A stretch of DNA of 64,000 bases from Squalus acanthias (taxonomy: Eukaryota), in assembly GCA_030390025.1 (NCBI GenBank), contig CM059431.1:133612001-133676000 (forward strand), written 5' to 3'. The notes beneath the pieces are model-generated. The model saw only the letters and a list, made by a program, of their open reading frames with translations, was not told the DNA's origin and ran no database searches. Positions 1 to 60,288 of the stretch are shown piece by piece. The first letter of the stretch is position 1, and each line of letters begins with the position of its first letter. Made by a program: the position numbers and the translations under genes.

Positions 1-85
1 CGTGCTGGACTTTGGGCACTGCTGCCGTGTGAAAAAATGCAGAGCTCTCTCACGTAGTTGTTGATTACCCATGGGGAAAATAATG

Positions 86-2007
86 CTAACTGTCGCCGTG
101 ACATCGGCCATCTCAATTTCTCTGCTCCCCTCTCTCACTCCAACCTACCTCCCTCTGAACTTGCAGCACTCCATTCTCTCCGATTCAACCCTGACATTGT
201 CATTAAACCTGCTGACAAGGGTGGTGCTGTTGTTGTTTGGCGAACCGACCTCTACCTAGCGGAAGTTGAACGCCAACTCTCCGACACCTCCTCCTACCTC
301 CACCTGGACCATGACCCCGCTACCGAACATCAAGCCACCGTTTCCAAGACTATCACTGACCTCATCTCCTCTGGAGATCTTCCCCCCATGGCCGCCAACC
401 TCATAGTTCCCCAACCCCGCACAGCCCGCTTCTACCTCCTTCCCAAGATCCACAAACAGGACTGCCCTGGTAGACCCATCGTTTCAGCCTGCTCTTGCCC
501 CACGGAACTTATCTCTTCCTATCTCGACTCTATTTTTTCTCCCCTTGTCCAGTCCCTTCCCACCTACATCCGCGATTCCTCTGATGCCCTCCGCCACTTT
601 AACAGTTTCCAGTTTCCTGGCCCCAACCGCCTCCTTTTCACCATGGACGTACAATCCCTCTACACCTCCATCCCCCACCAGGATGGCCTGAGGGCGCTCC
701 GCTTCTTCCTTGAGCAGAGGCCCAACCAGACCCCATCCACCACCACCCTCCTCCGCCTGGCTGAACTTGTTCTCACATTGAACAACTTCTCCTTTGACTC
801 CACTCATTTCCTCCAAATCAAAGGTGTTGCTATGGGTACCCGCATGGGTCCTAGCTATGCCTGCCTTTTCGTGGGATATGTGGAACACTCTTTGTTCCAG
901 TCCTACTCGGGTCCCCTCCCTCACCTCTTTTTCCGGTACATTGATGACTGTATCGGTGCCGTTTCCTGCTCTCGCCCCGAACTAGACAATTTCATTCACT
1001 TTGCCTCCAATTTCCACCCTTCCCTCACCTTCACATGGTCCATCTCCGACTCTTCCCTCCCCTTCCTCGACTTCTCCGTCTCCATCTCTGGGGATAGGTT
1101 ATTGACCAACATTCACTACAAGCCCACTGACTCCCACAGCTACCTGGACTACACTTCCTCCCACCCCGCCTCCTGTAAGGACTCTATTCCCTTCTCCCAG
1201 TTTCTCCGTCTCCGCCGCATCTGCTCCGACGATGCCACCTTCCATACCAGTGCTTCCGACATGTCTTCCTTTTTCCTCAACCGAGGATTCCCCTCTACCG
1301 TGGTCGACACGGCCCTCGACCGTGTCCGTTCCATCTCCCGCACTTCTGCCCTCGCCCCGGCCCCTCCCTCCCGGAACCACGATAGAGTTCCCCTTGTCCT
1401 CACCTTTCACCCCACCAGCCTCCACATTCAACGGATCATCCTCCGCCATTTCCGCCACCTCCAACGTGATCCCACCACCAAACGTATCTTCCCCTCACCT
1501 CCCCTTTCAGCATTCCGTAGGGACCGCTCCCTCCGAGACACCCTAGTCCACTCCTCTATCACCCCTAGCACCCCTTCCCCTTCACCCGGCACCTTCCCGT
1601 GCAAGCGCAGGAGATGCAACACCTGCCCTTATACATCCCCCCTTCCCACTCTCCAGGGCCCCAAACACCCCTTCCAGATGAAACAGCGATTTACTTGTAC
1701 TTCTTGCAATCTAGTATACTGTATTCGCTGCTCACGATGTGGTCTCCTCTACATTGGGGAGACGAAACGCAGATTGGGTGACTGCTTTGCAGAACACCTC
1801 CGTTCAGTCCGTAAGGGTGACCCCGAGCTTCCGGTCGCTTGTCATTTTAATTCACCCCTCCACGCCCACTCAGACCTCACCGTCCTCGGCCTCTTGCATT
1901 GTTCCACGGAAGCGCAGCGTAAGCTCGAGGAACAGCACCTCATCTTTCGTTTAGGCACTTTACAGCCTTCCGGACTCAATGTCGAGTTCAACAATTTCAG
2001 ATCATAA
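86..2007 (+). CDS. Penelope RT + Cys-rich linker + GIY-YIG endonuclease (5'-partial; ORF track 58..2007)
   Basis: Motifs IKPADKGG, YLLPKIHK, GRPIVS, TMDVQSLYTSI, GVAMGTRMGPSYA, FRYIDD, CKRRRCNTC, LVYCIRC..YIGET, LGTLQPSGLN. The first ~10 codons of the ORF come from flanking DNA. Confidence 0.92.
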
Positions 2008-13094: not shown

Positions 13095-15878
13095 CTATCT
13101 TTATCTTGTAGCTGATAAATCAGTACTCCCCCACTGAACACCATTTGGAAGCAGCATTGAGGGTTGCAAGAGAACAGAATGTACTCTGGATAAGGGACTT
13201 CAATGTCCATCACCAAGAGTGGCTCGAGCTGTCCGAGTCCTAAACGACATAACTGCCAGACTGGGCTTTCGGCAGGTGGTGAGAGAACCAGCACGAGGGA
13301 AAAACTTATTTGACCTCGTCCTCACCAGTTTACGTGTCACAGATGCATCTGTCCATGACAGTATTGGTAGAAGTGACGACCGCATCTTCACAATGAGGAC
13401 ACCCTCCACTGTATTGTGCGACACTACCACCGTGCTAAATGGGATAAATTCAGAACAGATCTAGCTGCTCAAAACTCCCAAACCCGCGACCTCCACCGCC
13501 TAGAAGGACAAGGGCAGCAGGCGCTTGTGAACACCATCACCTCCAAGTCACACACCATGCTGACTTATATTGCCGTTCCTTCATCTTCGCTGGGTCAAAA
13601 TCCTGGAACTTCCTCCCTAACAGCACTATGGGAGTACCTTCAACACATGGACTGCAGCGGTTCAAGAAAGTGGCTCACCACAACCTTCTCAAGGGAAATT
13701 AGGGATGGGCAATAAATGCTGGCATTGTCAGTGATGCCCACATCCCATGAACGAATAAAAAAACAAAAAAAACTGGCATCCATGAGGGGCTGTGGACCAT
13801 CAGCAGCAGCAGAATTGTATTCCACCATAATCTGTAACCTTGTGGCCCAACATATCCCTCACTCTACCATTACAATCAAGCCAGGTGACTAACCCTGGTT
13901 CAATGAAGAGTGTAGAAGAGCATGCCAGGAGCAGCACCAGGCATACCTGAAAATGAGGTGCCAACGTGATGAAGCTACAACACAGGACTACATGCATGCT
14001 AAACTGCAGAAGCAGCATGCTATAGACAGAGCTAAGTGACCCCACAATCAACGGATCAGCTCAAAGCTTTGCAGTCCTGCCACATCCAGCCATGAATGGT
14101 GATGGAAAATTGAACAACTAACGTGAGGAGGAGGCTCTGTGAACATCCCCATCCTCAATGATGGTGGGACCCAGCACGTGAGTGCAAAAGACAAGGCTGA
14201 AGTGTTTGCAACCATCTTCAGCCAGAAGTGCCGAGTGGATGATCCATCTCGGCCTCTTCCTGAAGTATCGAGCATCACAGATGCCAGTCTTCAGCCAATT
14301 CGATTCACTCCACGTGATATCAAAAAACGGCTGAGCGCACTGGATACAGCGAAAGCTATGGGTCCTGACAACATCCTGGCTGTAGTGTTGAAGACCTGTG
14401 CTCCAGAACTAGCTGTGCCTTTAGCCAAGTTGTTCCAGTACAGCTACAACACTGGCATCTACCCGACAAAGTGGAAAAATGCTCAGATATATCCTGTCCA
14501 TAAAAACCAGGACAAAATACAAAGTCAATTACCGCCTCATCATCCTATTCTCAATCATCAGCAAAGTGATGGAAGGCATCATCGACAGTGCTATCAAGCA
14601 GCACTTATGCACCAATAACCTGCTCGCTGATGCTCAATTTGTGTTCCGACTGGCCCAACTGGCTACAGACCTCATTGCAGCCTTGGTCCAAACATGGACA
14701 AAAGAGTTGAATTACAGAGATGAGTTGAGAGTGACTGCCCTTGAAATCAAGGCAGCATTTGACCAAATGTGGCACCAAGGAGGCATAAAATTGAAGTCAA
14801 TGGGGATCACAAGAAAAACTATCCACTGGCTGGATTCATACCTAGCGCAAATGAATATGGTTGTGGTTGTTGGAGGCCAATCATCTCATCTCCAGGACAT
14901 GGCTGCAGAAGTTCCTCAGAGCAGTTTCCTAGGCCCAACCATCTTCAGCTGCTTCATCAATGACCTTCCCTCCATCATAAGGTCAGAAGTGGGGATGTTC
15001 GCTGATGATTGCAGTGTTCAGTTGCATTCGCAATTCCTCAGATAATGAAGCAGTCCATGCCCACATACAGCAAGACCTGGACAACACTCAGACTTGGGCT
15101 GATAAGTGGCAAGGAACATTCACGCCACACAAGTGCCAGGCAATGACCATCTCCAACAAGAGAAAGTCTAACCACCTCCCCTTGACATTCAATGGCATTA
15201 CCATCATCGAATCGTCCACCATCAACATCTTGGGGTCACCATTGACCAGAAACTTAACTGTACCAGCCCCATAATAACTGTGGCTACAACAGCAAGTCAG
15301 AGGCTGGGTATTCTGTGGCAAGTGTCTCACCATTTTGACTCTCCAATACCCTTCCACTACCTACAAGCTACAAGTCAGGAGTGTGATGGAATACTCTCCA
15401 CTTGCCTGGATGAGTGCAGCTCCAACAATACTCAAGAAGCTCAACACCGTCCAGGACAAAGCAGCCCGCTTGATTGGCACCCCATCCACCACCTTAAACA
15501 TTCACTCCCTCCACCACCTGCGCACCGTGTACCATCCAGAAAATGCATTGCAGCAATTCCCAAGGCTTATCGATTGCACTTCCCAAACCCACAACCTCTA
15601 ACACCTAGAAGGACAAGGGCAGCAGGCACATGGGAACACCATCATCTCCAAGTTCCCCTCCAAGCCACACACCATCCTGACTTGGAAATATATTGTCGCT
15701 GGGTGAAAATCTTGGAACTCCCTACCTAACAGTACTGTGGGAGTACCTTCACCACACGGACTGCAACAGTTCAAGAATGTGGCTCACCACCACCTTATCA
15801 AGGGCAATTAGAGATGGGCAATAAATGCTGGCCTTGCCAGTGACACCCACATTCTGCAAATGAATAATTAAAAAAAAA
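13095..15878 (+). mobile_element. CR1-group LINE of the tRNA-headed family, 5'-truncated and decayed, with nested self 3' fragment (~13476-13768)
   Basis: KAMGPDNI, FINDLPSIIRSEVGMFADDC, QVRSVMEYSPLAW; tail GGGCAATAAATGCTGGCC plus A-run; colinear with 43490-45956. Confidence 0.9.
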
Positions 15879-29867: not shown

Positions 29868-29914
29868 ATTACTTCCCCCTGTTTCGCTACATAGGTTCCC
29901 CTTCCCCTGCCATA

Positions 29915-30439
29915 TTAGTTTAAATCCTCCCGAACTGCTTTAGCAAATATTACCCCGAGGACATCGGTTCCAGTCCTGCCCAAGTGCAGACCGTCCCTTT
30001 TGTACAGGTCCCACTTCCCCCAGAACTGGTTCCAATGCCTCAGGAATTTGAATCCCTCCCTCCTGCACCACTGCTCAAGCCACGTATTCAATCTCACTAT
30101 CCTGTTCTCTCTATTCTGATTAGCTCGTGGCCCTGGTAGCAATCCAGAGATTACTACCTTAGAGGTCCTACTTTTTAATTTAGCTCCTAGCTCCCTAAAT
30201 TCTGCTTGTAGGACCTCTTCCCGCTTTTTACCTATATCGTTGGTACCTACATGCACCACGACAGCTGGCTGTTCACCCTCCCTCTTCAGAATGTTCTGCA
30301 GCCGCTCCGAGACATCCTTGACCCTTGCACCAGGGAGGCAACATACCATCCTGGAATCTCGGTTGCGGCCACAGAAACTCCTGTCTATTCCCCTTACAAT
30401 TGAGTCCCCTATCACTATAGCCCTACCACTCTTTTTCCC
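29915..30439 (-). CDS. CR1 ORF1 C-terminal SGNH/GDSL esterase domain (partial)
   Basis: VIGDSIVRG, CLPGA, HVGTND, DGLHL. Confidence 0.9.
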   Translation of the reverse strand, partial: GKKSGRAIVIGDSIVRGIDRSFCGRNRDSRMVCCLPGARVKDVSERLQNILKREGEQPAVVVHVGTNDIGKKREEVLQAEFRELGAKLKSRTSKVVISGLLPGPRANQNRENRIVRLNTWLEQWCRREGFKFLRHWNQFWGKWDLYKRDGLHLGRTGTDVLGVIFAKAVREDLN

Positions 30440-31586
30440 GTATACAGGGCAAAATTTCAAAATTTGCAGATGACACAAAACTCGGAAATGTAGTAAACAA
30501 TGAGGATAGTAACAGACTTCAGGAGGACATAGACAGACTGGTGAAATGGCCAGACACATGGCAGATGAAATTTAACACAGAGAAAAGTGAAGTGATACAT
30601 TTTGGTATGAAGAATGAGGAGAGGCAATATGAACTATATGGTACAATTTTAAAGCGGGTGCAGGAACAGAGGGACCTGGGGCGTATGTACACAAATCTTT
30701 GAAGGTGGCAGGATAAGTTGAGAAGGCTGTTGAAAAAGCATATGGGATCCTTGGCTTTATTAATCAAGGAATAGAATACAAAAGCAAGGAAGTTATGTTA
30801 AACCTTTATAAAACACTGGTTAGGCCTCAGCTGGAGTATTGTGTTCAATTCTGGGCACCACACTTTAGGAAAGATGTCAAGGCCTTAGAGAGGGTGCAGA
30901 CGAGATTGACTAGAATGGCACCAGGGATGAGGGAAATCAGTTCTCTGGAGAGACTCAAGAAGCTGGGGTTGTTCTCCTTAGAGCAGAGAATGTTAAGAGG
31001 AGATCTGATAGAGGTGTTCAAAATCATGAACGGATTTGCTAGAGTAAATAAGGAGAAACCGTTTCCAGTGGCAGAAGGATCGGTAACCAGAGGATACAGA
31101 TTTAAGGTGATTCGCAAAAGAACCAGAGGTGAAATGAGGAAACATTTTTTTATACAGCGAGTTGTTGTGATCTGGAATGCACTGCCTGCAAGGGCAGTGG
31201 AAGCAGATTCAATAGTAACTTTCAAAAGAAAATTGGATAAATACTTGAAGGAAAAAAAAATTACAGGGCTATGGGGAAAGAGCAGGGGAGTGGGACTAAT
31301 TGGATAGCTCTACCAAAGAGCTGGCACAGGCATGATGGGCCAAATGGCCTCCTTCTGTGCTGTATCATTCTATGATTCTATGAATACAGGCCTCTGCCAA
31401 CTGTTTTCATGTACAGCACCCACATGGTGCATGTTTCTGTCTTCTCAACACCTATGGCTAACACCTCAATGTATGCGATGCCACTAATGTCAACTACTAA
31501 ATACATGCCTCTGCTTTTGTAGGAGAAGAGAGTGCATGGAAAGAGGTAGAATATGAGAATGAGGGTTGGATCAGCAAAGTTGTATC

Positions 31587-33756: not shown

Positions 33757-34800
33757 TTTTTTTTATTCGTTCCTGGGATGTGGGCGCCGCTGGCATGGCC
33801 AGCCTTTATTGTCCATCCCTAATTACCCTTGAGAAGGTGGTGGTGAACAGCCTTCTTGAACCACTGCAGTACACGTGGTGAAGGTACTCCCATAGCGCTG
33901 TAAGGGAGGGAGTTCCAGGATTTTGACCCAGCAACTATGAAGGAACGGCGATATACTTCCAAGTCAGGATGGTGTGTAACTTGGAGGGGAACTTGGAGGT
34001 GAAGGCCTGCTGCCCTTGTCCTTCTAGGTGGTAGAGGTCGCGGGTTTGGAAGGTGCTGTCGAAGAAGCCTTGGCGAGTTGCTGCAGTGCATCTTGTAGAT
34101 GGTACACACTGCAGCCACGGTACGCCGGTGGTGGAGGGAGTGAATGTTTAAGGTGGTGGATGGGGTGCCAATGAAGCGGGCTGCTTTGTCCTGGATGGTG
34201 TCGCGCTTCTTGAGTGTTGTTGGAGCTGCACTGATCCAGGCAAGTGGAGAGTATTCCATCACACTCCTGACTTTTGCCTTGTAGATGGTGGAAAGTCTTT
34301 GGGGAGTCAGATGGTGAGACATTCGCCATAGAATACCTAGCCTCTGACCTGCTCTTGTAGCCACAGTATTTATGTGGCTGGCCCAGTTAAGTTTCTGGTC
34401 AATGGTAACCCCCAGGATGTTGATGTTAGGGGATTTGGCGATGGTAATGCTGTTGAATGTCATGGGCGGTGGTTAGATGCGCTCTTGTTGGAGACAAGCC
34501 TGAATGTCGTCCAGGTCTTGTTGTATGCGGGCATAGACTGCTTCGTTATCTGAGGAGATGTGAATGGAACTGAACACTGTGCAAACATCAGCAAACATCC
34601 CCACTTCTGACCTTATGATGGAGGGAAGGTCATTGATGAAGCAGCTGAAGATGGTTGGGCCTAGGACACTGCCCTGAGGAACTCCTGCAGTGATGTCCTG
34701 GGGCTGAGATGATTGGCCTCCAACAACCACAACCATCTTCCTTTGTGCTAGATATGACTCCAGCCAGTGGAGAACTTTTCCTTGGATTCCTATTGACTTC
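33757..34800 (-). mobile_element. 3' fragment of the tRNA-headed CR1-group LINE family, inside a CR1 remnant (~33495-35000)
   Basis: GVPQGSVLGPTIFSCFIND, YKAKVRSVMEYSPLAW; poly(T) on + strand at 33757. Confidence 0.88.
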
Positions 34801-35426
34801 AGGAACGGTTCCTGAATCGAGAGAACTTTGGCAGATTATAGTTAGGGCATCTGCAATGTGCTCACCTACTTCCTTTAAAACCCTGGGATGGAAACCATCT
34901 GGTCCTGGGGATTTGTCACTCTTTCATGCCATTATTTTCTTCATTACTGTTATTTTGCTTACGTTAATTTTGTTTAGTCCCTGTCCCTGATTGGGATTTC
35001 CGGCATGCGAGCAGGGAAGTGCGGGTGGCCCATGAAAGGGATGATGCTGAGAGAGGACATGGAAGTGGGGGCTCTGCTCAAACTGCTCCCGCTTCTCCCC
35101 CATTGCCTCCTCCTCAGTCAGAGCCCCACATGCTGCCTCGGATCCCGATGGCCGAGTCTGCCCCTACATAGGTGCCGTCATTGAGGAGCAGTCATTGGCG
35201 GGGCCTCACAGGCTCCAAAATGCAGAGGATGTCCGCCAAAAGTGTCTAATCAGTCAGAGCAGGGAAGTGAGCAGCCTGCCTCTACCTCTGCTGACGCCAC
35301 AGGGGGTGCACCTCGTAGAAGTAGTAGAAAAAGAAAAATGACACAATTGTAGATGCACAAGGGGCTGCACATGTGTGTTCCAAAACGTTAGAGGGTTAAG
35401 TTTCATTTGTATTTATGAGCCATATA

Positions 35427-36916: not shown

Positions 36917-37920
36917 TGAAGGGCTCCTCCAGATCTGTCCAGGCATCTGAAGCGCATCTTCGGCATCCCGAATGCTTGCTCTATTACAAATGTTGTCATC
37001 ATTTGGCTTTGATTGTAGCGCTCTTCGGCCTCATTGCTTGACCTCCTCAAGGATGTCATCAGCTATGTCTTCAGTGGATAGTCCTAGTCTCCAAGCAGCC
37101 AGCCGGTAAGTCTGGCTGGAGGTGCAAAGTGCTGAGGGAGGGTGGACTGGCACAGGATGAATGAATCATGACAGCTCCCTGGGAGTATGGTGCACATATG
37201 CATGATGATCTTTTTGTGGTTGCAGACGAGCTGCATATTGAGGGAGTATAAGCCCTTCCGGTTTATGAACGCTCCTGGGTGATCTGGGGGTGCCCCGATG
37301 AGCACATGTGTGCAGTCGATGACGCCCTGCACCTGTGGGAATCCAGCCAGAGCCGCAAAGCCGAGCGCCCGCTCCGTCACACTGGCTTCATCAGTGGCAA
37401 AGTCTACATAAATGCCTGACTTGTGAAACATGGCATCGGTCACCTGGGTGATGCATCTGTGGGCGGCCGACTGCGAGATCCTGGAAGTGTCTGCTGCAGA
37501 TCCCTGGAAGGAGCCTGAGGCGAAGAAGTTGAGGGCAGTGGTGACTTTGATAGCTGCTGGAAAGGTGTGTCCACCAGGTCCACTTGGCAGCAGGTCTTCT
37601 TCCAGCAAGCTAGAAATGTCTGCCACAACCTGATGCGATAGCCTGAGCCTCCTAAGGCACTGCTGTTCAGTCATTTCCAGGAAGCTCATCCTCTGCCTAT
37701 ATACCCTGTGTTGGGGGTATCACCTCCGACGACGTGCACCCCTGTGCGCAACCCCTCTCTCCTGTGGAGCGGCAGGTCGGTGAGGAGAAAGCTGCTGCTG
37801 CTTCTGCTGGTGTTGTTGCTGCTGCTTCTGCTGGTGTTGTTGGTGCTGGGGCTCATCTTGGTCCGAATCTGAGGTCCAAGGTGAAACAGCATACGCAGCA
37901 CCCATGCTGATCTGATAGAT

Positions 37921-41440: not shown

Positions 41441-42702
41441 CTTGACCAATATGTTATTGGCCCAACTAGTAAGGAGGCATTGCTGGATCTGGTGCTGGGG
41501 TCATGCCTTCGATTTTAGTATAGGTTGCTATACAGGTATAGGCATATAAACTACCAGGAAACTACCAGGAAACTTCTATGCAGCTTTTCAAAGACAGTAA
41601 AAATTGTTTCCTATTTTAAAAATTTACATTCAAAGATTTGTAGATGCTTCCCTGTCAGGAACTCATCACTTCTGCCAGTATTAGCTGATCCTGTCAGTTG
41701 CTGCGTCTCCGACAATCATGTGTAACTTATCCCAAGTACAGCAGACATCTAAATCTCGGAAACTTGGAGCTGCAACACCACTGGCGTTCACTTTGATATA
41801 TATGTAAATTAGGATACATTGGGTGAATCACAGAATGGCTGCAGAAGCGCGAGAAAACTTGAGGAAGCCTTTTAAAGGTGCACAAGTTTGCTGGGAAAGT
41901 TTCATTTGCTGTTCCAGCACGTATACCAGAAATGATTGAGAATTGTCATATTCCCAAATAAGCTAAGATACTAAATTTATATTTTGTGAGAAAAATTTGC
42001 ATTACCTTGTTGTTTTATCTTAACTGATTTTTTAATTTCCTCTTTGCTTCACTTTTTTTCTCCAGTCTTTCTCATGGATAATGATACCATAATTATTCTC
42101 TATTATGTTTCTAATTTCTACACCTATCTCCAATTTTGCCTTTGCCTCCAATCTCCCACATGTCTGCCTCAAATGTTTGCCTTACATTCCTCAAATATTG
42201 CTGCCTCACATTTTACTTATAGGTCTGCTTTTACCCTCACGCTGGTCCCCAATTTGCCATCAGGCCAACTCCACTTCAGGTATATCTGTACCTCCTTTCC
42301 TTGCTCACTTAGTTGCTACTGTCGGTGGCCAGTAATAATGGGCAATGCTGCTTGCTCTTGCTCTAACTCTCTGGCAGGAGAAAGCAAGGGGCCACTAATA
42401 GGAGGCAGAGCTATCACTGCATTATGAACATACAAACATGTGAAAAAAGGGCAAAAAAAGACCATTACGGCCATCAATGGCCATCCCATCTATTTGATAA
42501 TACAACCCAATAATTGTCTCTTAGTGAAAGTAGTTAGTAGATCTGAACTCTTGATATTTACCTATATTTCTCCCCTCTTCAGTTTGTTCTTTTGGATATG
42601 TCTTACTTATTCCTGCCAGTCCTCTAATCGTGGCTTCTTCCACCTAACTCTGCCAGTTCTGATGAAGGATATTAGTTGATCCCTTTTCAGATATTAACTG
42701 TC

Positions 42703-45700
42703 CTGCTGCAAATTTAGGGTTTTTGTCTGGTGAATGGGTGAAAACAGGCGCTAAATGGATGCTGTGCTAAAAAGAACGGCAGCATAGTGGTTATGTTACT
42801 GGACTAATAATCCAGAGGCCTGGACTAATAATCCAGAGACATGATTTCAAATCCCACCACGGCAGCTGTGGAATTTAAATTCAGTTAATTAAATAAATCT
42901 GGAATAAAAAGCTAGTATTAGTAATGGTGACAATGAAACTATTGGATTGTCGTAAAAATCCATCTGGTTCACTACTGTCTTTTAAGGTTTACTACCGTCC
43001 ATACCTGGTCTGGCCTGTATGTGACTCCAGATCCACAGCAATGTGGTTGACTCTTAACTGCCCTCTGAAAAATAGCCTAGCAAGCCACTCAGAACCGCTA
43101 CGAAAAACAATAATAAGAATAAAACCGGACGGACCACCCGGCATCGACCTTCAGACACAACAACGGCACACTCAGCCCAGTCGACCCTGCAAAGCCCTCC
43201 TCACTAACATCTGGGGACTTGTGCCAAAATTGGGAGAGCTGTCCCACAGACTAGTCAAGCAACAGCCTGACATAGTCATACTCACAGAATCATACATTTC
43301 AGCCAATGTCCCAGACTCCGCCATCACCCACCGGCAGGACAGACCCACCAGGGGTGGCGGCACAGTGGTATACAGCCAGGAGGGAGTGGCCCTGGGAGTC
43401 CTCAACATTGACTCCGGACCCCATGAAGTCTCGTGGCTTCAGGCCAAGCATGGTCAAGGAAACCGCCTGCTGATTACCACCTACCGCCCTCCCTCAGCTG
43501 ATGAATCAGTACTCCTCCATATTGAACATCACTTGGAAGAAGCACTGAGGATGGGGGACTTCAATGTCCATCACCAAGAGTGGCTTCGTAGCACCACTAC
43601 TGACTGAGCTGGCCGAGTCCTGAAAGACATAGCTGCCAGACTAGGACTGCAGCAGCTGGTGAGAGAACCAACACGAGGGAAAAACCTACTTGACCTCATC
43701 CTCACAAATCTACCTGTTGCAGATGCATCTGTCCATGACATCATTGGTAGCAGTGACCACCGCACAGTCCTTGTGGAGACAAAATCTCATCTTCACACTG
43801 AGTGTTGTGTGGCACGACCACCGTGCTAGATGGGATAGATTCAGAACAGATCTAGCAGTTCAAAACTGGGCATCCATGAGGCGCTGTGGACCATCATCAG
43901 CAGCAGAATTGTATTCCACTACAATCTGCAGCCTCATGGCCCAGCATATCCCTCACTCTACTATTACCATCAAGCCAGGGGATCAACCCTATTCAATGAG
44001 GAGTGCAGAAGAACATGCCAGGAGCAGCACCAGGTGTACCTAAAAATGAGGTGCCAACCTGGGGAAGCTGCAACACAGGACTACATGCATGTTAAAAAGC
44101 GGAAGCAGCATGCTATAGAGAGAGCTAAGTGATCCCACAATCAACGGATCAGATCAAAGCTCTGCAGTCTTGCCACATCCAGTCGTGAATGGTGGTGGAC
44201 CATTAAACAACTAACGGGAGGAGGAGGTTCAATGAATATCCCCATCCTCAATGAGGACGCAAGTGCAAAAGACAAGGCTGAAACATTTACAACCTTCTTC
44301 AGCGAGAAGTGCCAAGTGGATGATCCATATCAGTCTCCTTCTGAGGTCCCCACCATCACAGAAGCCAGTCTTCAGCCAATTTGATTCACGCCACCTGATA
44401 TCAAGAAACGGCTGAAAGCACTGGATACAGCAAAGGTTATGGGCCCTGACAACATCCCGGTAGTCAGGCTGAAGACTTGTGCTCCAGAACTAGCCAAGCT
44501 GTTCCAGTACAGCTACAACACTGGCATCTATCTGACAATGTGGAAAACTGCCCAGGTATGTCCTGTCCACAAAAAGCAGGACAAATCCAATTCAACCAAT
44601 TACCGCCCCATCAGTCTACTCTCAATCATCAGCAAATTGATGGAGGGTGTCGTCGACAGTGCTATCAAGCGGCATTTACTCACCAATAACCTGCTCACCG
44701 ATGCTCAGTGTGGATTTCGCCAGAACTACTCGGCTCCAGACCATAATACAGCTTTGGTCCAAACATGGAAAAAAGAGAATTCTAGAGGTGAGGTAAGAGT
44801 GACTGCTTTTGACATCAAGGCAGCATTTGACCAAGTGTGGCCTCAAGGATCCCTAGTAAAATTGAAGTCAATGGGAATCAGGGGGAAAACTCTCCACTGG
44901 CTGGAGTTATACCTTACACAAAGGAAGATGGTTGTAGTTGCTGGAGGTCAATCATCACTAACCCCAGGACATCACTGCAGGAGTTCCTCAGGGCAGTGTT
45001 CTAGGCCAAACCATCTTCAGCTGCTTCATCAATGACCTTCCCTCCATCATAAGGTCAGAAGTGGGGATGTTCGCTGATGAGTGCAGTGTTCAGTTCCATT
45101 CACAACTCCTCAGATAATGAAGTAGTCCATGCCCGAATGCAGCAAGATCTGGATGACATTGATAAGTGGAAATAAACATTCGCGCCACACAAGTGCCAGG
45201 CAATGACTATCTCCAACAAGTGAAATTCTAACCACCGCCCCTTGACATTCAATGGCATTACCATTGCCGAATCCCCCACCATCAACACCCTGGGGGCCAC
45301 CATTGACCAGAAACTTTATTGGACCAGTCACATAAATACTGTGGCTACAAGAGCAGGTCAGAGGCTAGTTATTCTGCGGCGAGTGTCTCACCTCCTGACT
45401 CCCCAAAGCCTTTCCACCATCTACAAGGCACAAGTCAGGAGTGTGACAAAATACTCTCCACTTGCCTGGATCAGTGCAGGTCCAACAACACTCAAGAAGC
45501 TCGACACCATCCAGGACAAAGCAGCCCGCTTGATTGGCACCCCATCCACCACCTTAAACATTCACTCCCTCCACCACCGGCGCACCGTGGCTGCAGTTTG
45601 TACCATCTACAAGATGCACTGCAACAACTCGCCAAGGCTTCTTCAGCAGCACCTCCCACACCCGCGACCTCTTCCACCTTGAAGGACAAGGGCAGCAGGC

Positions 45701-48492
45701 GCATGGGAACACCACCACCTCCAAGTTCCCCTCCAAGGCACACACCATCCTGACTTGGAAGTATATCGCCGTTCCTTCATCGTCGCTGGGTCAAAATCCT
45801 GGAACTCCCCACAGTGCTGTTAGGGAGGAGTACCTTCACCACAAGGACTGCAGCGGGTTCAAGAAGGTGGCTCACCACCACCTTCTCAAGGGCAATTAGG
45901 GATGGGCAATAAATACTGGCCTTGCCACTGACGCCCAAATCCTAGGAATGAAAAATAAAGAAATGCCTGTTTTTCAGTGTGGATGCAGCACATAATTTTT
46001 GGGCTAATTGATGATCATGATTTAAACGTGCCTGCAGGCGCTGAAACCGACACCTGCACATTTAGCACTCAAGCGCTGATTAGATGCAATTTTCCTGGAA
46101 CCGTATATTTAGCCTGCCCTCACCCACTTCCACTGAAGGTATGGAGTGCGCTGGCTGGGAGAGAAGCCAACGTGGAAGGATGTAGTGAGAGGGCGCCCAG
46201 GTTCTCTGACACGGCACTGGAGGTCCTGCTGGAGGAGGTCCAGAGGAGGAGAGATGTCCTCTACCCACAGCGGGGAAGGAGGCCACAGAGGCAGCTAATG
46301 CGGTGCATGTGATAGGAGATCGCCCAGGAGGTGACAGCCAGGAGCCCTGGCCTCAGGACATGGCTCCAGTGCCGCAAGAAATGTAATGACTTGACACAAG
46401 TGGTCAAGGTAAGATCCCATCTCACAAACACACTTCTCAATAACCGCACCACCACCTCCAGCATCACAACCTCAACATACTTCATCCACCATCTAACTAT
46501 ACACTGACATTCATACACCCCACACTATTGCATCCTTCACCGGCACCACTCACACAGACACATCTTACAGCTCTTCAACCATGTGAGGTATCACACAGAT
46601 GCAAACACACCTATCAATACACTCATTCACTATCACCACTCTTTCTCTTCCAGGACAAGATAGCACATAACAGGTGCCAGCAGGACCTGACCAGGGGAGG
46701 GGAAGCACGTCTGCAAGACATCACCCCTCTTAAGGAGGCAGTGCTGGCCTTGATTGGAGTGGGGGTGGGGGAGTGGCAGACACTGTGGCTAGAGGCAGAG
46801 CAGGGGGCTAGAGGTTTGTGGCCACTCCGTGTTACTTAGAGATGCACAACTATTCCTGATCCCTAATTCCCCAAACCTATCCTCACTCCCAAGCTCCATA
46901 TGGTCTCATCACACACATCCTCAGCCATATGCGCTGCACCCTAACCCTTCTAGCTTTATCATTGCAGCCTCCCAGAAGCAAAATCCATCTCGCATCCCCC
47001 CTGGAGCAAGTGCAAGACGAGCAAGAGCCATCTCACGCACCCGCCTCCACCTTGGTCCGTGGCTTGACACAGAGCCTGGAACCCATCCTCTCCAGCATGG
47101 AGAGGCTGGCCAATTCCAGCCAGCAACCTGTGGAGCCCAACATTATGCAACGTCTGATGACTAAGGTCGCAGCTTCCAATCCAGTCATTGCAGCTTGCAT
47201 AGAACGACATAGTGCTGCAATGGAAGCCCAATCAGCTTCCGTTGCACTACTTGTGTCTCTATGGAATGGCAAAGTGCTGCAATGGAAGCTCAGGCAGCTG
47301 CCATGGTGGTTCTGAGCTCTTTGGTTGAAAGGGGCTTGCAGAGTGTCTCCAATGGCCAGAGATCTGTCCTCCACCAGATTACTGGGCGGGCTGAACAGAG
47401 GCCCCGAGGTAGTGGTGTGGGAATTTTGGAGCAGGAACCTACTGGCCTCTCTCCGGATACCAGCATTGCTGCTCCCTCCCCCGCCCTTGCCGTTACCTGT
47501 CAGCCAGGTGGCCCAGACTGCTCAAGCCCATGCTGAAGTGGTGCAGTCTGAGGCGGGGCCATCACGGCCCACAGCCTCTCGAGGCCATCGCAGGAGGACA
47601 TCTGAACTGCCCTTTTGAGAATCTCAGCAGCCATCCATCTCACCTGCTGCTGCCACTAGGGTTGCACTTCACAGAAGCACCAGATTAGGCACTTATAGAT
47701 AGCCACTAAGGGTAAGCATCAGGGTGAATAGTTTAATATTGGTTAGTTGTGTGATGTTTCCATTGTTTGATTGTGCTGCAAATAAAGTTTGATGATGGTA
47801 ATTGGGTATTGGTGGAATTGGTGGTCTTTTTTATCGTGGTCCTCATGGGGAAGGAGTTGAAAGGATTGAGTGCAGATGATAAACTGCCTGATGGATCCTA
47901 AGTCATGGAAGGTACATCATGTGGCAACAGTGCACCGGAGTCTGATGGTGGAGCACATTTCTCTAAAGCGCTCTTCAATTAGATGGCGGAAAGCATCCAT
48001 CCCAGTTGTGGGCCGTCTACCTGGAAGCCTCTGGTGCTCCCCCTGGTTCCCCTCCTCTGCCTCCCCTCTTCTGTCTCCTCCTCCTCTTCCTCCTTCTCCT
48101 CTTCCTCCTTCTCCTCTTGACCCTCTGGCACAGTTGCTGGTGGTAACGGATCATGACCGTCAGATTGTGGAGCATGCATCAAATCACCCCGAATGTGGAC
48201 ACCCTCTCAGCCGAGTACTGCAGGACACCTCCCGAACAGTCAAGACATCTAAACTGCTGCTTCAGGACCGCAATGGTCTTCTCAACGATATTCCTGGTGG
48301 CTGAGTGACTCTCATATTATGAGTGCTCAGCTGGTGTCTGGGGGTTTCTCAGAGGAGTCATGGGCCATGGCATCAGAGGATATCCCTTGTCACCTAGTAG
48401 CCAACCATGCATATTGTGTTCGGGCTCAAAGATCTGTGGGACGGATGACTGTCTCATTATAAACGCATCATGGCAGCTTCCTGGGTAGCATC
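42703..48492 (+). mobile_element. PIF/Harbinger transposon D: 3-exon Myb gene on + (~46171-46408, 46654-46813, 46968-~47730), transposase 3' part on - (~47980-48490)
   Basis: [39 protein letters not shown]; left end interrupted by the LINE at 42777; right part cut by CR1; left boundary tentative. Confidence 0.78.
42777..45956 (+). mobile_element. Apparently full-length single-ORF CR1-group LINE with a tRNA-derived 5' head (ORF decayed)
   Basis: A-box-like AGCATAGTGG, anticodon-arm-like hairpins, B-box-like ATTTCAAATCCC; APE (NIWGL, DIVILTES, YRPP, MGDFN, SDH); RT (FDIKAAFD, GVPQGSVLG, FADE); 3' tail; AAAGAA at both ends. Confidence 0.85.
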
Positions 48493-50170: not shown

Positions 50171-52231
50171 CTTGTCAAAACCTTAGGGGGTGGGGAAGGA
50201 GTAAATCAAAATAGCAGGTCTCGGACTTGCAGTAACCAAATCAAGAAAACAGGTCACTTTGTAAACATTCAAATTGATTTAAAACAAGACCATACATCTT
50301 TAATTTAAACTGCATAAAGCAATAGCAGTTTTTTTTATAGCTGTAATCCAATTAAAGGAAAGTGCTTTGAAGAGTTCAAATTGATCGACTACCAGATACC
50401 ATGGCAACCGTAACTTCAAGGCTGAATCTTATCTTTTGTGAAACAAACTCTTTGTGCTTTTCACAGTTGCACCAGTAAACCTCAGTCAAAATAAATCCAC
50501 ACCATCGTCTTTCACTTAAAATGTCAATGACAAAAGTTTAAAATATTGATCTCTGTAATGGGTTATGAACAAAGAAAGTGCCAAATTTGATGTGATATTC
50601 CCAGGTTGCAAGCTCAAGGAACATTCACATAGTTTAAATCAGTTCAAAACCAAAACAGGACTTGAAGTATTTCAGAAATAATACGCGTGTGTGTATATAT
50701 ATAATACACATAGAGAAAACGATTAAAAAACTTAAAAACAGCATATGCTTATAGAAACTGACACCAAAAGCAAACCTTCAAGCAAAAGAAATGCTGTAGA
50801 AACATTTGTAGCATTCTTAATGTTAAGCCCTCAGCAGTTTTACACATTCACACACACTTTCCTACATACTGAAACCACAAACAGCAGCCTTTGCCTGCTG
50901 TGACAGGACTGATGTTAACCTCTGTTTCTAACCCTTTCTTTTCCTTGTCATCATTATCTTTTGCCGTTCCTCTAACATGCATACCCACTTATCAGCATAT
51001 GCTTCAAAGGGGTTTGACTGACGGTCCTCGACCTGGAACTATTCCACTCTCCTTGGTAACTTCATTGCTATGTATCTTGGATTGCTGCTTCTATTTTCCA
51101 CCCACCTCTGCCCAGAACACCTGTTTCTGTTCGGATATTGGACACAGTATTTTTGATTGACTATGTCAGGTCCCTGTTCGGGCACCACTTAATCTATAGG
51201 GTTACAGATGTTCCAGTGACTCGTGAACCTGGACAGTAGCCAGCCAAAGAAGGTCACGCTACTCTGTATGTTAATCAAAGTTATCTTTAATGATTTAACA
51301 TTGCACACAGCACTAAAACAGTTTACACAAGCATAAAGACAGCATCAAGCAATACATACGACCTTTAAATCCAAGGATCTTAGCATCAAGGCAGAAGAGT
51401 GATCAGCTCCCTCATAGCTCTTGAAGTTTCTTCTTTTTCTTGGACATCCTTCCTCCAGGTTAAACTTCTTAAGGCTCATCTGACTGCAATAAAGAACCTG
51501 CTGCAATGTCCTATTTTTATATAATTTTTGCCAGTTGGAGTGTGAATTCAAGTCAAGAGAAGTCCCATTTTGGCCACTCCAGTGGGTTAATTAATGTTGG
51601 AGGGTTGGCTGGGCCACTCAAAATCATGTGAGCTCAGGTACTGTATTTTAGTTGTCTTTCTGTTTTTCCAAGTCAGTTGATTTGAGAACCAAAATTATTT
51701 AAGAACCAAAAGCCTGTTCAAAGCTTTTCAAAATTTCTGCATTTCTTAAAGGCAGCTTGCATCTCTTAAAGGGGAGGTGCATTCTGGCTGCAGCAGGTGA
51801 TTCAACTGTTTGGGGAACAGAATCTGAGCAGGAACAACACAGTGTAATGGCACAACAGGGCAGAGAACGTGCTGCAAGGTTCTCGGATGCAGCACTGGAG
51901 GCCTTGGTGCAGGAGGTAGACAGGATGAGAGAGGTCCTATATCCACAGAGGGCCAGGAGGCCCTCCAGACAAACTCTGAGAAGGCAATTGGAGCAGATAG
52001 CCTTCACGGCCAATGCCAGCAGTGTAGCCCCAAGGACCTGGATGCCGTGCCACAAGAAGTTTAATGACCTCACAAGTGATCAAGGTCAGTGAATTCATCC
52101 TCAAATGTCATATCCTTAAACTGTACCACTAGGCTCAGACACTGCTCAATTCACCATCCTCCCTTCACTCACCTACCAAAATCTCTATCAATCACGACTC
52201 ATACTTCACATTCATAGCATCACCTCATCCT

Positions 52232-55852: not shown

Positions 55853-57872
55853 AGCCTGAGCGCAATGTCAAGGAGCATGAAGGAGTCTGGCACCAACCTT
55901 CTGCAGAGCTTGGAGCCCATTCTTTACAGCATGGAAGTGATGGGAAACTCCATTAGTACACTTGTGGACACAACCATGATGCAGCGTCTGATGGCCAATG
56001 TCTCAGCTTCCATTGCAGCACAAGCAGAAGCCACCCAACGTCTGGGTGCTGCAGTGGAAGCTCAGACTTCTGTCATCGTGGCTCTGATTACCAGTGTTGA
56101 ATGGGGCTTGCAGGGTATCACAGCAGTCCAGCAATCTGTCCTCTCAATGACATCATTCATGCTCACACCGCCAGTGCCCTTGCTTTTGCCTATCAGCCAG
56201 TCAGCCCAGACTGCTGCCGCCCATGCCGAGGTGGTGCAATCCGAAACTGGGCCTTCTAGGCTCAGAGCTGCTCGAGGTCATCCTCCAAGGCCATCTGCAG
56301 TCTCCCCCACTGAAAGTCAGCAGCCATCCACCAGCTATGCTGCAGCCACTGTGGTAGCACTGCGTAGGAGCACTAGGACAGTCAAAGGCACACGAAAGAC
56401 AGGCACTAAGGGAATGCACAAGGGTGATTAATTGACATGGTATGTAATATTGGATGGTTTGATTTATAAAGTTGGTTTGGCATGTTCATTTTGTGGTGGC
56501 ATTTATTGTAGCATTGTGGCCAAGAGGACGCTGTGATGGTCAATAACAAAGGGAAGGGAAGGTGTGGTACTGTTGGTGAATGTGGAATTGGGTTTGCGTA
56601 CACTGGTACTGCAGTCGGATGAGTCAATCATGGACAGCCCGGCCAGAAAGAGGCTGTGTTGGTTGCCTCATCCCTTCCTCCTCCTGCTCCTCCTCTTCCT
56701 CCTGCTCCTCCTCAGCTCTTCATCATATATGTGGTGGCAAGTGCTGTGCCCTCATGATGGCGAGGTTGTGCAGCATGCAGCAGACCATGACAAATCTTGA
56801 GACGTGCTCTGGTGAGTACTGCTGGGCTCGTCCAGAACGGTCAAGGCAGCGGAAGCATTGTTTAAGCAATGGTCTGTTCGATCACATTCCGTGTGGCAGC
56901 ATGGCTTTCGTAATATGCCTGCTGCCTACGTGTGCTTGGGTTGCGCACCCGAGTTATGAGGCAGGTGTTCAGCGACTAGCCCTTGTCGCCCAGTAGCCAC
57001 CTGGTTTGTTGTGGTGGCACAAATGCGGATGGTACAGCGGACTGCTGCATAATGAAGGCATCGTGGCTGCTGCCAGGATATCGGGCATTGACTTGCATGA
57101 TGCGCTGAGTATGGTCGCACCCCATTTGGACATTGAGGGATTGGAATCCTTTCCTGTTGCGGTACAGCCCCGACCTCACATGTGGTGCCCGCAAAGTGGT
57201 GTGTGTGCAGTCAATGGCACCCTGCACCATGGGGAAGCCTGCTATCCTGGTGAAGCTGCATGCTCGCTCCGCCTGCTTCTCACTGGCCAGAGAGAATGAA
57301 ATGTATTCAGCTCTCTTTGCATACAGAGCCTCAGTGACCTCCCTTGTGCAACATTGCACGGCAAACTGGGAGACGTTGGAAATATCACCTGCTCCAGCCT
57401 GGAAGGAGTCCAACGCATAAAATTTCATGGCCTCTGGTTCACCTTCACAGCCACTGACAATGCCGCCCTCGGCCTGCTCCGAGGCTGCAGTTCTGCCTGC
57501 AACAGGTGGCAGATTTCAGTGAGCACTTCCTTGGTGAAGCAAACACGTCGCATACACTGTTCCTCGCTGAGGTTGAGATAGGAGACTTGCTCCCTGTTTA
57601 CCCTGGATGGATATGGCCTCCAGCTGAGAGGCCTTCTCCCGCTCCTCCTCCTCCCTCTTTGAGCAACTTGTCCTCCTCTGTGTCACCTCTGCTTATTCTC
57701 CCGGTCATGCTGCAGGTCAAGGGGGATACAAACTACTGCACCCATGTCTGGGAGCAACTGGTCTGAGCATAAACCGTATAGTAACCTGCCACACCACTCC
57801 CTGGAGACTTCAGCAACTTCAAATCAGATAACAAACCATCAAACACTTCTACAAATTCACCAAGAGCCAGTA

Positions 57873-59196: not shown

Positions 59197-60288
59197 ATGG
59201 GTGCTGCTTATGCTGTCTCACCTTGGACCTAGGAATCGGACCAAGATGAGCCCCAGCAGCCACAACACCAGCAGCAGCCACAACACCAGCAGCAGCAGCA
59301 ACCACAACAGCAGCCTTCTCCTCAATGACCTGATGCTCCATAGGGGAGAAGGGAACACCACAGGGCTGATTCATGCCAGAGGCGATACCCCCAACACAGG
59401 GTATACAGGCAGAGGATGAGCTTCCTGGACATGACTGAGCAGTGCTTCAGGAGGCTCAGGCTATCGCCCCAGGTCACTGCAGACATTTGTAGCTTGCTGG
59501 AACAAGACCTGCTACCCAGAGGACCTGGTGGACATGCCTTACCAGTGGCTGTCAAAGTCACCACCGCCCTCAACTTCTTCGCCTCAGGCACCTTCCAGGG
59601 ATCTGCAGCAGACATTTGTGGGATCTTGCAGTTGGCCGACAACAGATGCATCACCCAGGTGACCGATGCCATGTTTGACAAGTCAGCCAATTATGTAAAC
59701 TTTGCCACTGATGAAGCCAATGTTACTGAGCGGGTGCTCGGCTTTGCGGCTCTGGCTGGCTTCCCAAGGGTGGAGGGCGTCATCAACTGCATATATGTGG
59801 CCATCAAAGCACCCCCTCATCACCCAGGAGTGTTTGTCAACCGCAAGGGCTTCCACTCCCTCAATGTGCAGCTCGTCTGCAACCATAAAAAGATGATTCT
59901 GCATGTGTGCGCCAGATTCCCTGGCAGCTGTCATGATTCTTTCATGCTCTGCCAGTCCACCCTCCCTCAGCTCTTCACACCTCCAAACAGACTTACCGGC
60001 TGGCTGCTTGGAGACAAGCGCTGTCCACTGAAGACGTGGCTGATGATACCCTTGAGGAGGCGAAGTAATGAGGCTGAGGAGCGTTATAATGAGAGCCACA
60101 TGTTTACCAGATGTGTCATAGAGCAAGAAATAGACATGCTGAAGATGCGCTTCAGATGCCTTGACAGATCTGGAGGAGCCCTTCAGTACGTACCAGCCAG
60201 GGTCTCCAGAATCATCGTCGTCTGCTGCGCACTGCACAATATAGCACAACAGCAGGGTTTGGAGCTGCAGGAGGAGCAAGGCACTTAG
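59197..60288 (+). pseudogene. Harbinger (HARBI1-family) DDE transposase, disabled
   Basis: ATG at 59197 in frame with ORF 59416..60288 but with stops; first catalytic Asp changed (GVINCIYV vs GVIDCTHV); GDKRC instead of GDKGY. Confidence 0.88.

Follow-up and report, generated by a model that had tools for sequence, protein, structure and literature searches.

The locus examined here raises the question of whether a long interspersed nuclear element (LINE), which encodes its own proteins, can carry an internal promoter for RNA polymerase III (Pol III). Prevailing rules hold that RNA polymerase II (Pol II) transcribes LINEs, that tRNA heads belong to the non-coding short interspersed nuclear elements (SINEs), and that Pol III products are limited to under about 1 kb. 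The locus lies in a 64,000-nucleotide stretch of the Squalus acanthias genome (assembly GCA_030390025.1, contig CM059431.1, positions 133,612,001 to 133,676,000), here called the window, in which a sequence-only reading had recognized a candidate Pol III-driven LINE. The element is a dead, full-length copy of an elasmobranch Zenon LINE of the CR1 group. The retrotransposed unit of this family starts with a tRNA-derived, SINE-type head followed by a 230-nt body, and in this genome head, body, and LINE have been co-inherited through at least two subfamilies. The head may also be the promoter of the element, and the evidence for and against that proposal is weighed below.

In the window, the element occupies 42774-45963 on the + strand and consists of a tRNA-like head, the 230-nt body, a CpG-rich leader, an apurinic-type endonuclease (APE) domain, a reverse transcriptase (RT) domain, a C-terminal region, and an A-rich tail, with the following parts:

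42774..42865, + strand: tRNA-derived head; this copy lacks the first two G of the family
42780-42790, + strand: A-box site in the head, one mutation off the motif in the window copy
42799-42815, + strand: anticodon-like arm, a 17-nt sequence that recurs as the extra arm at 42820-42836
42843-42854, + strand: B-box site in the head, one mutation off the motif in the window copy
42866..43095, + strand: body, the leader segment common to the short SINE-like forms, with several upstream ATGs and AATAAA hexamers
43096..43190, + strand: LINE-specific CpG-rich leader, with an Arg-rich N-terminal extension in the APE frame and an out-of-frame ATG/ATA site at 43119
43191..43829, + strand: APE domain (Pfam PF03372 and PF14529; tblastn of relatives), broken by a stop at 43605-43607
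44385..45117, + strand: RT domain (Pfam PF00078), frameshifted in the window copy near 44960 and 45090
45118..45899, + strand: C-terminal part of the single open reading frame (ORF), terminating ...FKKVAHHHLLKGN, stop at 45897-45899
45857..45949, + strand: 3' tail common to the short forms, comprising the last 13 codons, the stop, a short 3' untranslated region (UTR), and AATAAA at 45908-45913
45950..45963, + strand: degenerate A-rich tail, which contains the 3' AAAGAA of the sequence-only reading

The basic architecture described beforehand, a tRNA-like head leading through a leader of about 400 bp into an APE-RT coding region, is present, and both enzymatic domains are recovered by Pfam in the window copy (Exo_endo_phos for the APE, E 4.9e-6; RVT_1 for the RT, E 1.6e-15). 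The APE domain begins only about 420 nt from the 5' end, which leaves no room for an ORF1; family-level stops occupy all frames of this leader, and the unit is a single APE-RT ORF. The copy is decayed, as had been supposed: protein relatives of 966-973 aa align by tblastn over 43191-45820 in three frames with several stops, and the 5' 830 nt differ at 6.6% of positions from the most frequent base in an alignment of 50 copies. Four public runs, which carry the labels of four organisms, supply contigs informative on repeat borders and joints rather than on starts, strand, or level; these have a depth of 0-6 before 42748, of thousands inside the element, and of 4-39 after 45971.

Several details of the initial description had to be revised. 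The 5' end had been placed at 42777; it lies at 42774, with the first GG of the family missing from the window copy. The short repeat AAAGAA (42771-42776 and 45957-45962), taken to be a target-site duplication, is unconvincing as one: because the family begins GG-GAAYGG, the 5' repeat overlaps the first three bases of the element, its own GAA, and the 3' repeat lies inside the A-rich tail. No clear target-site duplication was seen by eye in five short copies for which both ends were examined; among full-length copies, the window copy was the one examined at both ends. The frame that is open from 42897 into the APE is private to the window copy and an artefact of deletions, this copy having lost 8 and 11 nt in the region of the family-level stops of the APE frame.

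The junction between head and LINE is found throughout the family, as three samples of copies demonstrate, the analysis covering 90 loci in all. A 301-nt query spanning the junction gave 6801 candidates, of which 40 were scored; it matched 39 other places, each of them at 84-88% identity over at least 295 of the 301 bases. The second query, 43180-43480, was taken from the LINE only, so that the sample was not selected for the head, and the sequence upstream of 29 other loci was inspected. The first 12 nt of the head were reached in 21 of the 29, two of them internally deleted (L059 and L060); one more begins 23 nt into the head, and the remaining seven are truncated at 42842-43149. In none of these 29 copies was any other shared upstream sequence, ORF1, or alternative 5' UTR present. 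Conversely, when loci were sampled by the head only, 24 of 29 continued into the LINE past 43200. The sequence-only reading had named two outcomes that would speak against it, a junction private to this locus and full-length copies that extend upstream with an ORF1 and a Pol II promoter; both were looked for, and neither was found in these samples.

The 5' end of the unit is sharp. Upstream flanks are unrelated across 65 5' ends, and 36 of the 45 copies aligned to the first base are preceded by GG and, before that, a variable base; the unit therefore begins GG-GAAYGGTAGC. Head, body, leader, and APE start form one uninterrupted alignment with an identical junction in 49 copies, and the allele found at 42792 in the head shows linkage to those of the LINE at 43121, 43160, 43314, and 43106 (Fisher p 1.1e-6, 5.7e-5, 4.6e-5, and 4.4e-4, respectively). 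Two of the seven truncated copies in the LINE-only sample carry an inverted 5' piece. In these copies, L040 and L041, a piece of the element (equivalent to 44810-45114) lies inverted in the 5' flank, which is the pattern of twin priming in L1.

The chance that a SINE and a LINE merely lie next to each other at this locus is negligible, being refuted by the genome-wide junction, the unrelated flanks, the 49 unbroken copies, and the consensuses of five species described next. A one-off chimeric retrocopy of the U6/L1 type fails as well, since the junction recurs in 49 copies and five species and is not private to the locus.

Comparison with published elements identifies the family. The RT is 34% identical to that of a CR1 ORF2 in the same window, and protein relatives at 63-77% identity occur in gene models of manta ray, cow shark, and sawshark. 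Five species abbreviations used below (SquAca, CarCar, RhiTyp, ScyCan, and HypSab) presumably cover the great white shark, whale shark, catshark, spiny dogfish, and a stingray. Zenon is described in PMC13343379, a survey of the CR1 group (GBE 2026), by a single APE-RT ORF, the lack of an ORF1, and a poly-A tail unique among CR1-group elements, and is reported there among vertebrates from elasmobranchs, coelacanth, and hagfish. All three traits are present in the family studied here; because Zenon is defined without ORF1, its absence is ordinary for the clade and no part of the surprise. Supplementary Table 2 of that paper lists the consensuses SquAca_Zenon-1/-2/-3 and CarCar_, RhiTyp_, ScyCan_, and HypSab_Zenon-1, which were compared by eye over their first 400 letters. 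All seven, from five species, open with the head, the body, and the same leader, and the first 400 letters of SquAca_Zenon-1 match, by eye, the commonest letters of the copies here in head, body, leader, and junction. Over the same first 400 letters, the head was not seen at the start of the hagfish and coelacanth consensuses. The top Zenon insertion measures 3322 bp (Supplementary Table 3, PMC13343379), in agreement with the length of the family here, and copies with an open ORF number 3 of 612 in one ray and 1 of 1419 in whale shark in the same table.

The family was thus already catalogued as a sequence, and what is new is the reading of its tRNA head, there being no sequence difference from the Zenon consensuses. 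In the main text of PMC13343379, "tRNA" and "promoter" do not occur and "SINE" occurs once, so that the head has been published as letters and not as a finding; the same text states that no elasmobranch Zenon is deposited in any repeat database. No description of an autonomous LINE with a tRNA-derived head was found in the papers searched on LINEs, SINEs, Pol III, and Zenon, Repbase and Dfam being outside this search.

The head itself is only weakly tRNA-like, even in the better copies. Neither ARAGORN nor Rfam called a tRNA in the window; elsewhere, the heads of sister copies at 2 of 20 loci reached 24.9 and 24.6 bits on the Rfam tRNA model, below the 29-bit threshold, and ARAGORN called a tRNA at 3 of 58 loci of the family. 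The features that survive are the D-arm with the A box, an anticodon-like arm, a 22-nt extra arm, and the T-arm with the B box. The acceptor stem is unpaired, with 2 of 7 positions pairing by eye and mismatch marks in the Rfam alignment. Two subtypes of the head (…GTGGTTATGTTACTGGAC… and …GTGGTAATGTCACTGGGC…) are each found on LINEs.

The promoter boxes recur across the family. Of 50 copies, 38 have the A box TRGCNNAGTGG and 40 have the B-box-like RGTTCRANTCC; the A box starts 9 nt away from the 5' end, and in 26 copies the two boxes start 64 nt apart. Both boxes thus lie 3' of the start at tRNA-like positions, as in the type-2 layout of Pol III promoters. Among the Zenon consensuses of PMC13343379, the A box fits the motif in six, which retain its bases and cover all five species, and varies only at its R and N positions, while the bases that flank it vary between species; one further SquAca consensus has a gap within the A box, and three species' consensuses contain a perfect GGTTCGAATCC. 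The A/B-box head at the 5' end is that of a SINE2 element, whereas the unit that bears it is a 3.2-kb APE-RT-coding one rather than a short (about 100-700 bp) non-coding one.

Based on these data, a simple model would have the head act as the element's own promoter, with Pol III transcribing from it, and we put this at just short of an even chance. Bound by TFIIIC and TFIIIB, the A and B boxes would direct the start to tRNA position +1. This would account for the first nucleotide that LINE copies and short forms are observed to have in common, an outcome that an internal Pol III promoter gives and that a Pol II promoter would have to mimic. Pol III would then transcribe the whole 3.2 kb, meeting no sense-strand run of four T (T4) until the T-run at the extreme 3' end of some copies, and target-primed reverse transcription would use the uncapped RNA as its template. 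Translation would follow a non-scanning route: ribosomes might enter internally, start at a non-AUG codon, or shift frame after the out-of-frame AUG at 43119. Pol III transcription is compatible with every sequence test that was run, namely the boxes, the sharp 5' end, the lack of an ancestral T4, and the leader.

Runs of four or more T (T4+) are rare on the sense strand, with 31 in 152 kb of aligned copies versus 875 runs of four or more A. Each T4+ run is shared by at most 1 of 6 or 5 of 80 copies, the 3' third being covered by 6-24 copies, and the ancestral 3.2 kb was therefore without T4. The density in the LINE part is 0.13 T4+ per kb versus 2.2, 3.1, and 6.5 in three other RT-coding stretches of the window. 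These include a CR1-type LINE at 26934-30571, used as the Pol II-type control (8 sense-strand runs in 3.6 kb), and two further stretches with 6 runs in 1.9 kb and 5 in 0.8 kb. The odds that a T-run is extended are 0.15, 0.12, and 0.06 in the family versus 0.25, 0.25, and 0.21 in the CR1 control.

The leader poses the question of how the APE-RT ORF could be translated. In 74-94% of 50 copies, stops at about 43022, 43055, 43078, and 43092 close the APE frame of the family; beyond about 43092 it remains open across a basic stretch rich in Arg and on into …LLTNIWGL…, and no ATG occurs in it. The protein relatives begin with a Met about 27 residues before the LLTNIWGL motif, and their N-terminus is similarly basic. 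Seven upstream ATGs, each in 78-88% of copies, precede this region. The sequence-only reading had concluded that translation would need to be cap-independent, and that conclusion is supported by the seven upstream ATGs and by the lack of any ATG in frame from the last stop to the APE; for this ORF, ordinary cap-dependent scanning looks excluded.

One out-of-frame ATG is conserved. The ATG …GAATGAAAC… at 43119 is kept in the first 400 letters of all five species' consensuses in PMC13343379 and is ATA in one subfamily here. Its distance to the Asn codon of the APE is 98 nt in 15 of 31 copies and, by our own count, 92 nt in the ray consensus, so that the offset between the two frames is the same in every case. 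The frame of this ATG remains open over about 44 codons to 43252, overlapping the start of the APE frame, an arrangement that looks like a programmed shift or an unusual start. No slippery −1 frameshift heptamer was seen by eye between this ATG and the APE motif, no conserved near-cognate start codon was found for the APE frame, and the codon-position pattern of 13 shark-ray differences in the overlap region prefers neither frame. Two other starts were considered and dropped: ACG at about 43098 as a non-AUG start, which is ACA in the CarCar consensus, and read-through from the in-frame ATG-GCC-TAG at 43072, after which the stretch varies in length between species and holds a second stop here.

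A precedent for such a life cycle is R2, a LINE co-transcribed with rRNA, released by a ribozyme, and taken to start translation without a cap (PMC12203849). R2 resembles what is proposed here in being an autonomous LINE with no Pol II promoter of its own, a structured RNA module that fixes its 5' end, and cap-independent translation. It differs in that it depends on Pol I co-transcription and an HDV-like (hepatitis delta virus) ribozyme and inserts site-specifically, whereas the family here is dispersed and carries a tRNA-type module.

Several observations weigh against Pol III as the polymerase of the LINE. The acceptor stem of the head is unpaired and its score lies under the Rfam threshold. 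The leader is dense in CpG, which would suit an internal Pol II promoter; its CpG-site columns (46 of 831) diverge by 17.8% versus 4.2% elsewhere among 50 copies, for which reason the copies appear to have been methylated and to have decayed as ordinary genomic DNA. The depletion of T4 is only weakly significant, since dinucleotide shuffles of the window copy average only 3.5 T4+ runs and the family avoids T-runs of every length, so that about one T4 is expected. The boxes might be kept under selection by way of the short forms, which are far more numerous, if heads pass between short and long forms. We know of no natural Pol III transcript of 3.2-kb length. In the literature, Pol III processivity is taken as a limit that holds SINEs and Pol III-type TRIMs (miniature retrotransposons with terminal repeats) under about 1 kb, LINEs are stated to be Pol II elements, and SINEs are said to be unable to encode protein (PMC10886601, PMC5786205).

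The 3' end points both ways. Its statistics come from 16 ends. The family ends in …CCCAGGAATGAAT, then 0-11 T, then 3-16 A; 11 of the 16 ends finish in 5-16 A, with AATAAA about 45 nt upstream. AATAAA followed by an A tail is an ordinary Pol II 3' end. At least four T directly precede the A-run in 4 of the 16 ends, with TT in four more; this is compatible with a Pol III terminator, but the T-run could equally be tail noise. Zenon elements carry an A tail in all phyla, the hagfish and coelacanth ones among them, whose printed 5' ends lack the head (PMC13343379). A T-run of variable length (2-11 T) between GAATGAAT and the A tail occurs in half of the copies, at window positions 13743, 15852, 15959, 33778, and 45940 and at other loci. 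The T+ SINEs (B2, Dip, and Ves; PMC8466645) have the same succession of AATAAA, T-run, and A tail, and their Pol III transcripts are polyadenylated; they are from mammals with L1, whereas here the T-run is found in 4 to 8 of 16 3' ends.

Abundant short forms of the element also occur in the genome, in which the 5' 300-360 nt are joined directly to the last 70-450 nt. Copies L066 and L085, at different loci, have a common junction, …CAGTTGTA|CAAGAAGG…, and this form must itself have been copied, as one junction is found at two different loci. Other junctions are present in L062, L080, and L082, and larger internal deletions in L007 and L048. Further joints in the contigs of the four runs include 43067>45857, 43069>45856, 43070>45870, and 43092>45886, among others. 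The tail of the short forms is the LINE's own end because it starts inside the last 13 codons of the ORF (FKKVAHHHLLKGN-stop, 45857-45899). By structure the short forms are SINEs; by descent they are internal-deletion derivatives of the headed LINE. The 5' break points cluster at 43063-43095 while the 3' break points vary over 45856-45886, and the clustering suggests that head and body form a module. The reverse order, in which an older head-plus-body RNA was joined to the LINE more than once, is possible.

Alternatively, a SINE head and body placed before a Zenon LINE by template switch or recombination became the master copy, and Pol II transcribes the fusion from an internal promoter in head, body, or leader. 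Pol III would then make only the short forms, and the head may keep the chromatin open through TFIIIC. This account is a serious contender, although we lean against it. It agrees with all studied LINEs other than the rRNA-resident ones being Pol II elements (PMC5786205, PMC10886601), with the CpG-dense leader, with AATAAA about 45 nt before the A tail, with the existence of head-less Zenon relatives, and with the weak significance of the T4 depletion. However, Pol II would have to start exactly at the tRNA-type start nucleotide, given 36 of 45 identical 5' ends, and would produce an RNA whose main ORF lacks an in-frame AUG, whose 420-nt leader contains seven upstream AUGs, and whose first 350 nt contain three AATAAA hexamers on the sense strand. 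Such a role for the head would also leave the A box held to its motif in all five species to be accounted for.

A processing signal would explain the sharp 5' end at tRNA position +1 in another way: the element has no promoter of its own, is transcribed by read-through from host genes, and is cut by RNase P 5' of the head. Processed LINEs do exist, with HDV-like ribozymes in R2 and some RTE elements (PMC5786205, PMC12203849), and since Rfam finds no known ribozyme in 42000-46500, another device would be needed here. The acceptor stem that RNase P requires is unpaired, however, and RNase Z would also sever the head from the LINE, which makes this explanation improbable.

Still less probable is the recurrent formation of chimeras, in which the RT jumps anew each time from a head-less LINE RNA to a SINE-like RNA. 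U6/L1 and tRNA/L1 chimeras are known for L1 (PMC13174262), and the clustered 5' and variable 3' breaks of the short forms hint at a head-plus-body module that could be joined in this way. Against this, a head-less full-length copy starting at 43096 was found in 0 of 29 loci, one junction is present in 49 copies, head and LINE alleles are linked, and the same architecture recurs in five species.

Insertion of the LINE into one SINE position, each copy being a LINE inside a SINE, would account for the order of SINE 5' part, LINE, and SINE tail, and is a pattern known for Tx1-type LINEs, but it is refuted and barely credible here: the last 13 codons of the ORF and its stop (45857-45899) lie within the supposed SINE tail, relatives align to 45820, no SINE 5' part precedes the 5'-truncated copies, and nothing SINE-like follows the A tail.

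In comparison with known systems, the family resembles tRNA-derived SINEs of the SINE2 type in its A/B-box head, body, LINE-derived tail, and sharp 5' end. SINE2 elements are short and non-coding, whereas here the same head and body sit on a 3.2-kb element coding for APE and RT. The shark SINE HE1, which has the LINE partner HER1, is reportedly one of these tRNA-derived SINEs. The HE1/HER1 pair (Ogiwara 1999) is cited in PMC3747384. In RIME/ingi, NARTc/L1Tc, Bov-A/Bov-tA, and WALLSI (Kojima 2018, PMC5786205), short forms likewise consist of the 5' and 3' ends of an autonomous element, and the several independent deletion junctions found here are as described for bipartite non-autonomous LINEs in the same paper. 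In Kojima's scheme (PMC5786205), however, it is a LINE driven by Pol II and already deleted that acquires the head, whereas here the autonomous element bears the head, and the 5' parts come only from the RTE and Vingi clades, whereas Zenon belongs to the CR1 group.

TRIMp3 elements (Cassandra, Helenus, and Ajax; PMC10886601) are non-SINE retrotransposons with a Pol III promoter derived from a small RNA, but are non-coding, under about 1.3 kb, and of the long terminal repeat type, and their length is argued to be limited by Pol III. The U6/L1 and tRNA/L1 chimeras (PMC13174262) place a small Pol III RNA on the 5' end of a LINE by template switching. They are one-off, dead-on-arrival products with variable L1 truncation, and their tRNA parts are mostly half-length and antisense. 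By analogy, template switching is a likely origin of the head-LINE fusion, which here is heritable and ancient.

On the most far-reaching interpretation, elasmobranch Zenon would be the first autonomous protein-coding retrotransposon with its own tRNA-type Pol III promoter, kept since before the shark-ray split and accompanied by a SINE partner that is the same element with its interior deleted; we hold this broader claim tentatively, at somewhat below an even chance. At the level of sequence, a shark and ray family of thousands of copies breaks the rule on tRNA heads, and it may break the other two. Whatever the polymerase, a LINE and a SINE can be one lineage that shares head, body, and tail and either has or lacks the ORF, which bears on the origin of SINEs and on the source of SINE bodies. 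Should the broader claim hold, Pol III would be capable of producing, in vertebrate cells, a translatable RNA 3.2 kb long, and a SINE could either originate from a LINE or become one. The family also offers a natural case in which to study how an mRNA is translated when its leader is structured and laden with AUGs and no AUG stands in frame, and testing is practical, as the consensuses are published and a few open-ORF copies are reported.

The window contains further copies of the family:

13769..15868, + strand: second copy, 5'-truncated (equivalent to 43862-45956), with its own A tail
33763..34801, − strand: third copy, 5'-truncated (equivalent to 44863-45955), with its own A tail
13110..13758, + strand: internally deleted fragment (43496-43867 joined to 45653-45955)

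Three family pieces accordingly stand head to tail at 13110-15868 (+), representing nested insertions or a rearranged copy. Other mobile elements surround them. The CR1-type LINE at 26934-30571 (−) is apparently intact, with an ORF2 open over 1002 aa that contains APE and RT (RVT_1 E 1.6e-34); a piece of an esterase-type ORF1 (GDSL lipase/OSK) at 29918-30571 precedes this ORF2. A 649-aa open frame at 58-2004 (+) matches RVT_1 only weakly (E 1.3e-5) and lies on a strand rich in C (39%); it belongs to a retroelement of a different kind. Transposase ORFs of the PIF/Harbinger type and a Myb/SANT-like ORF are located at 59344-60285 (+), 56979-57515 (−), 37087-37719 (−), and 51703-52089 (+); the best transposase match, DDE_Tnp_4 at E 2.1e-29, falls in a 314-aa open frame, and remains of DNA transposons lie around the element.

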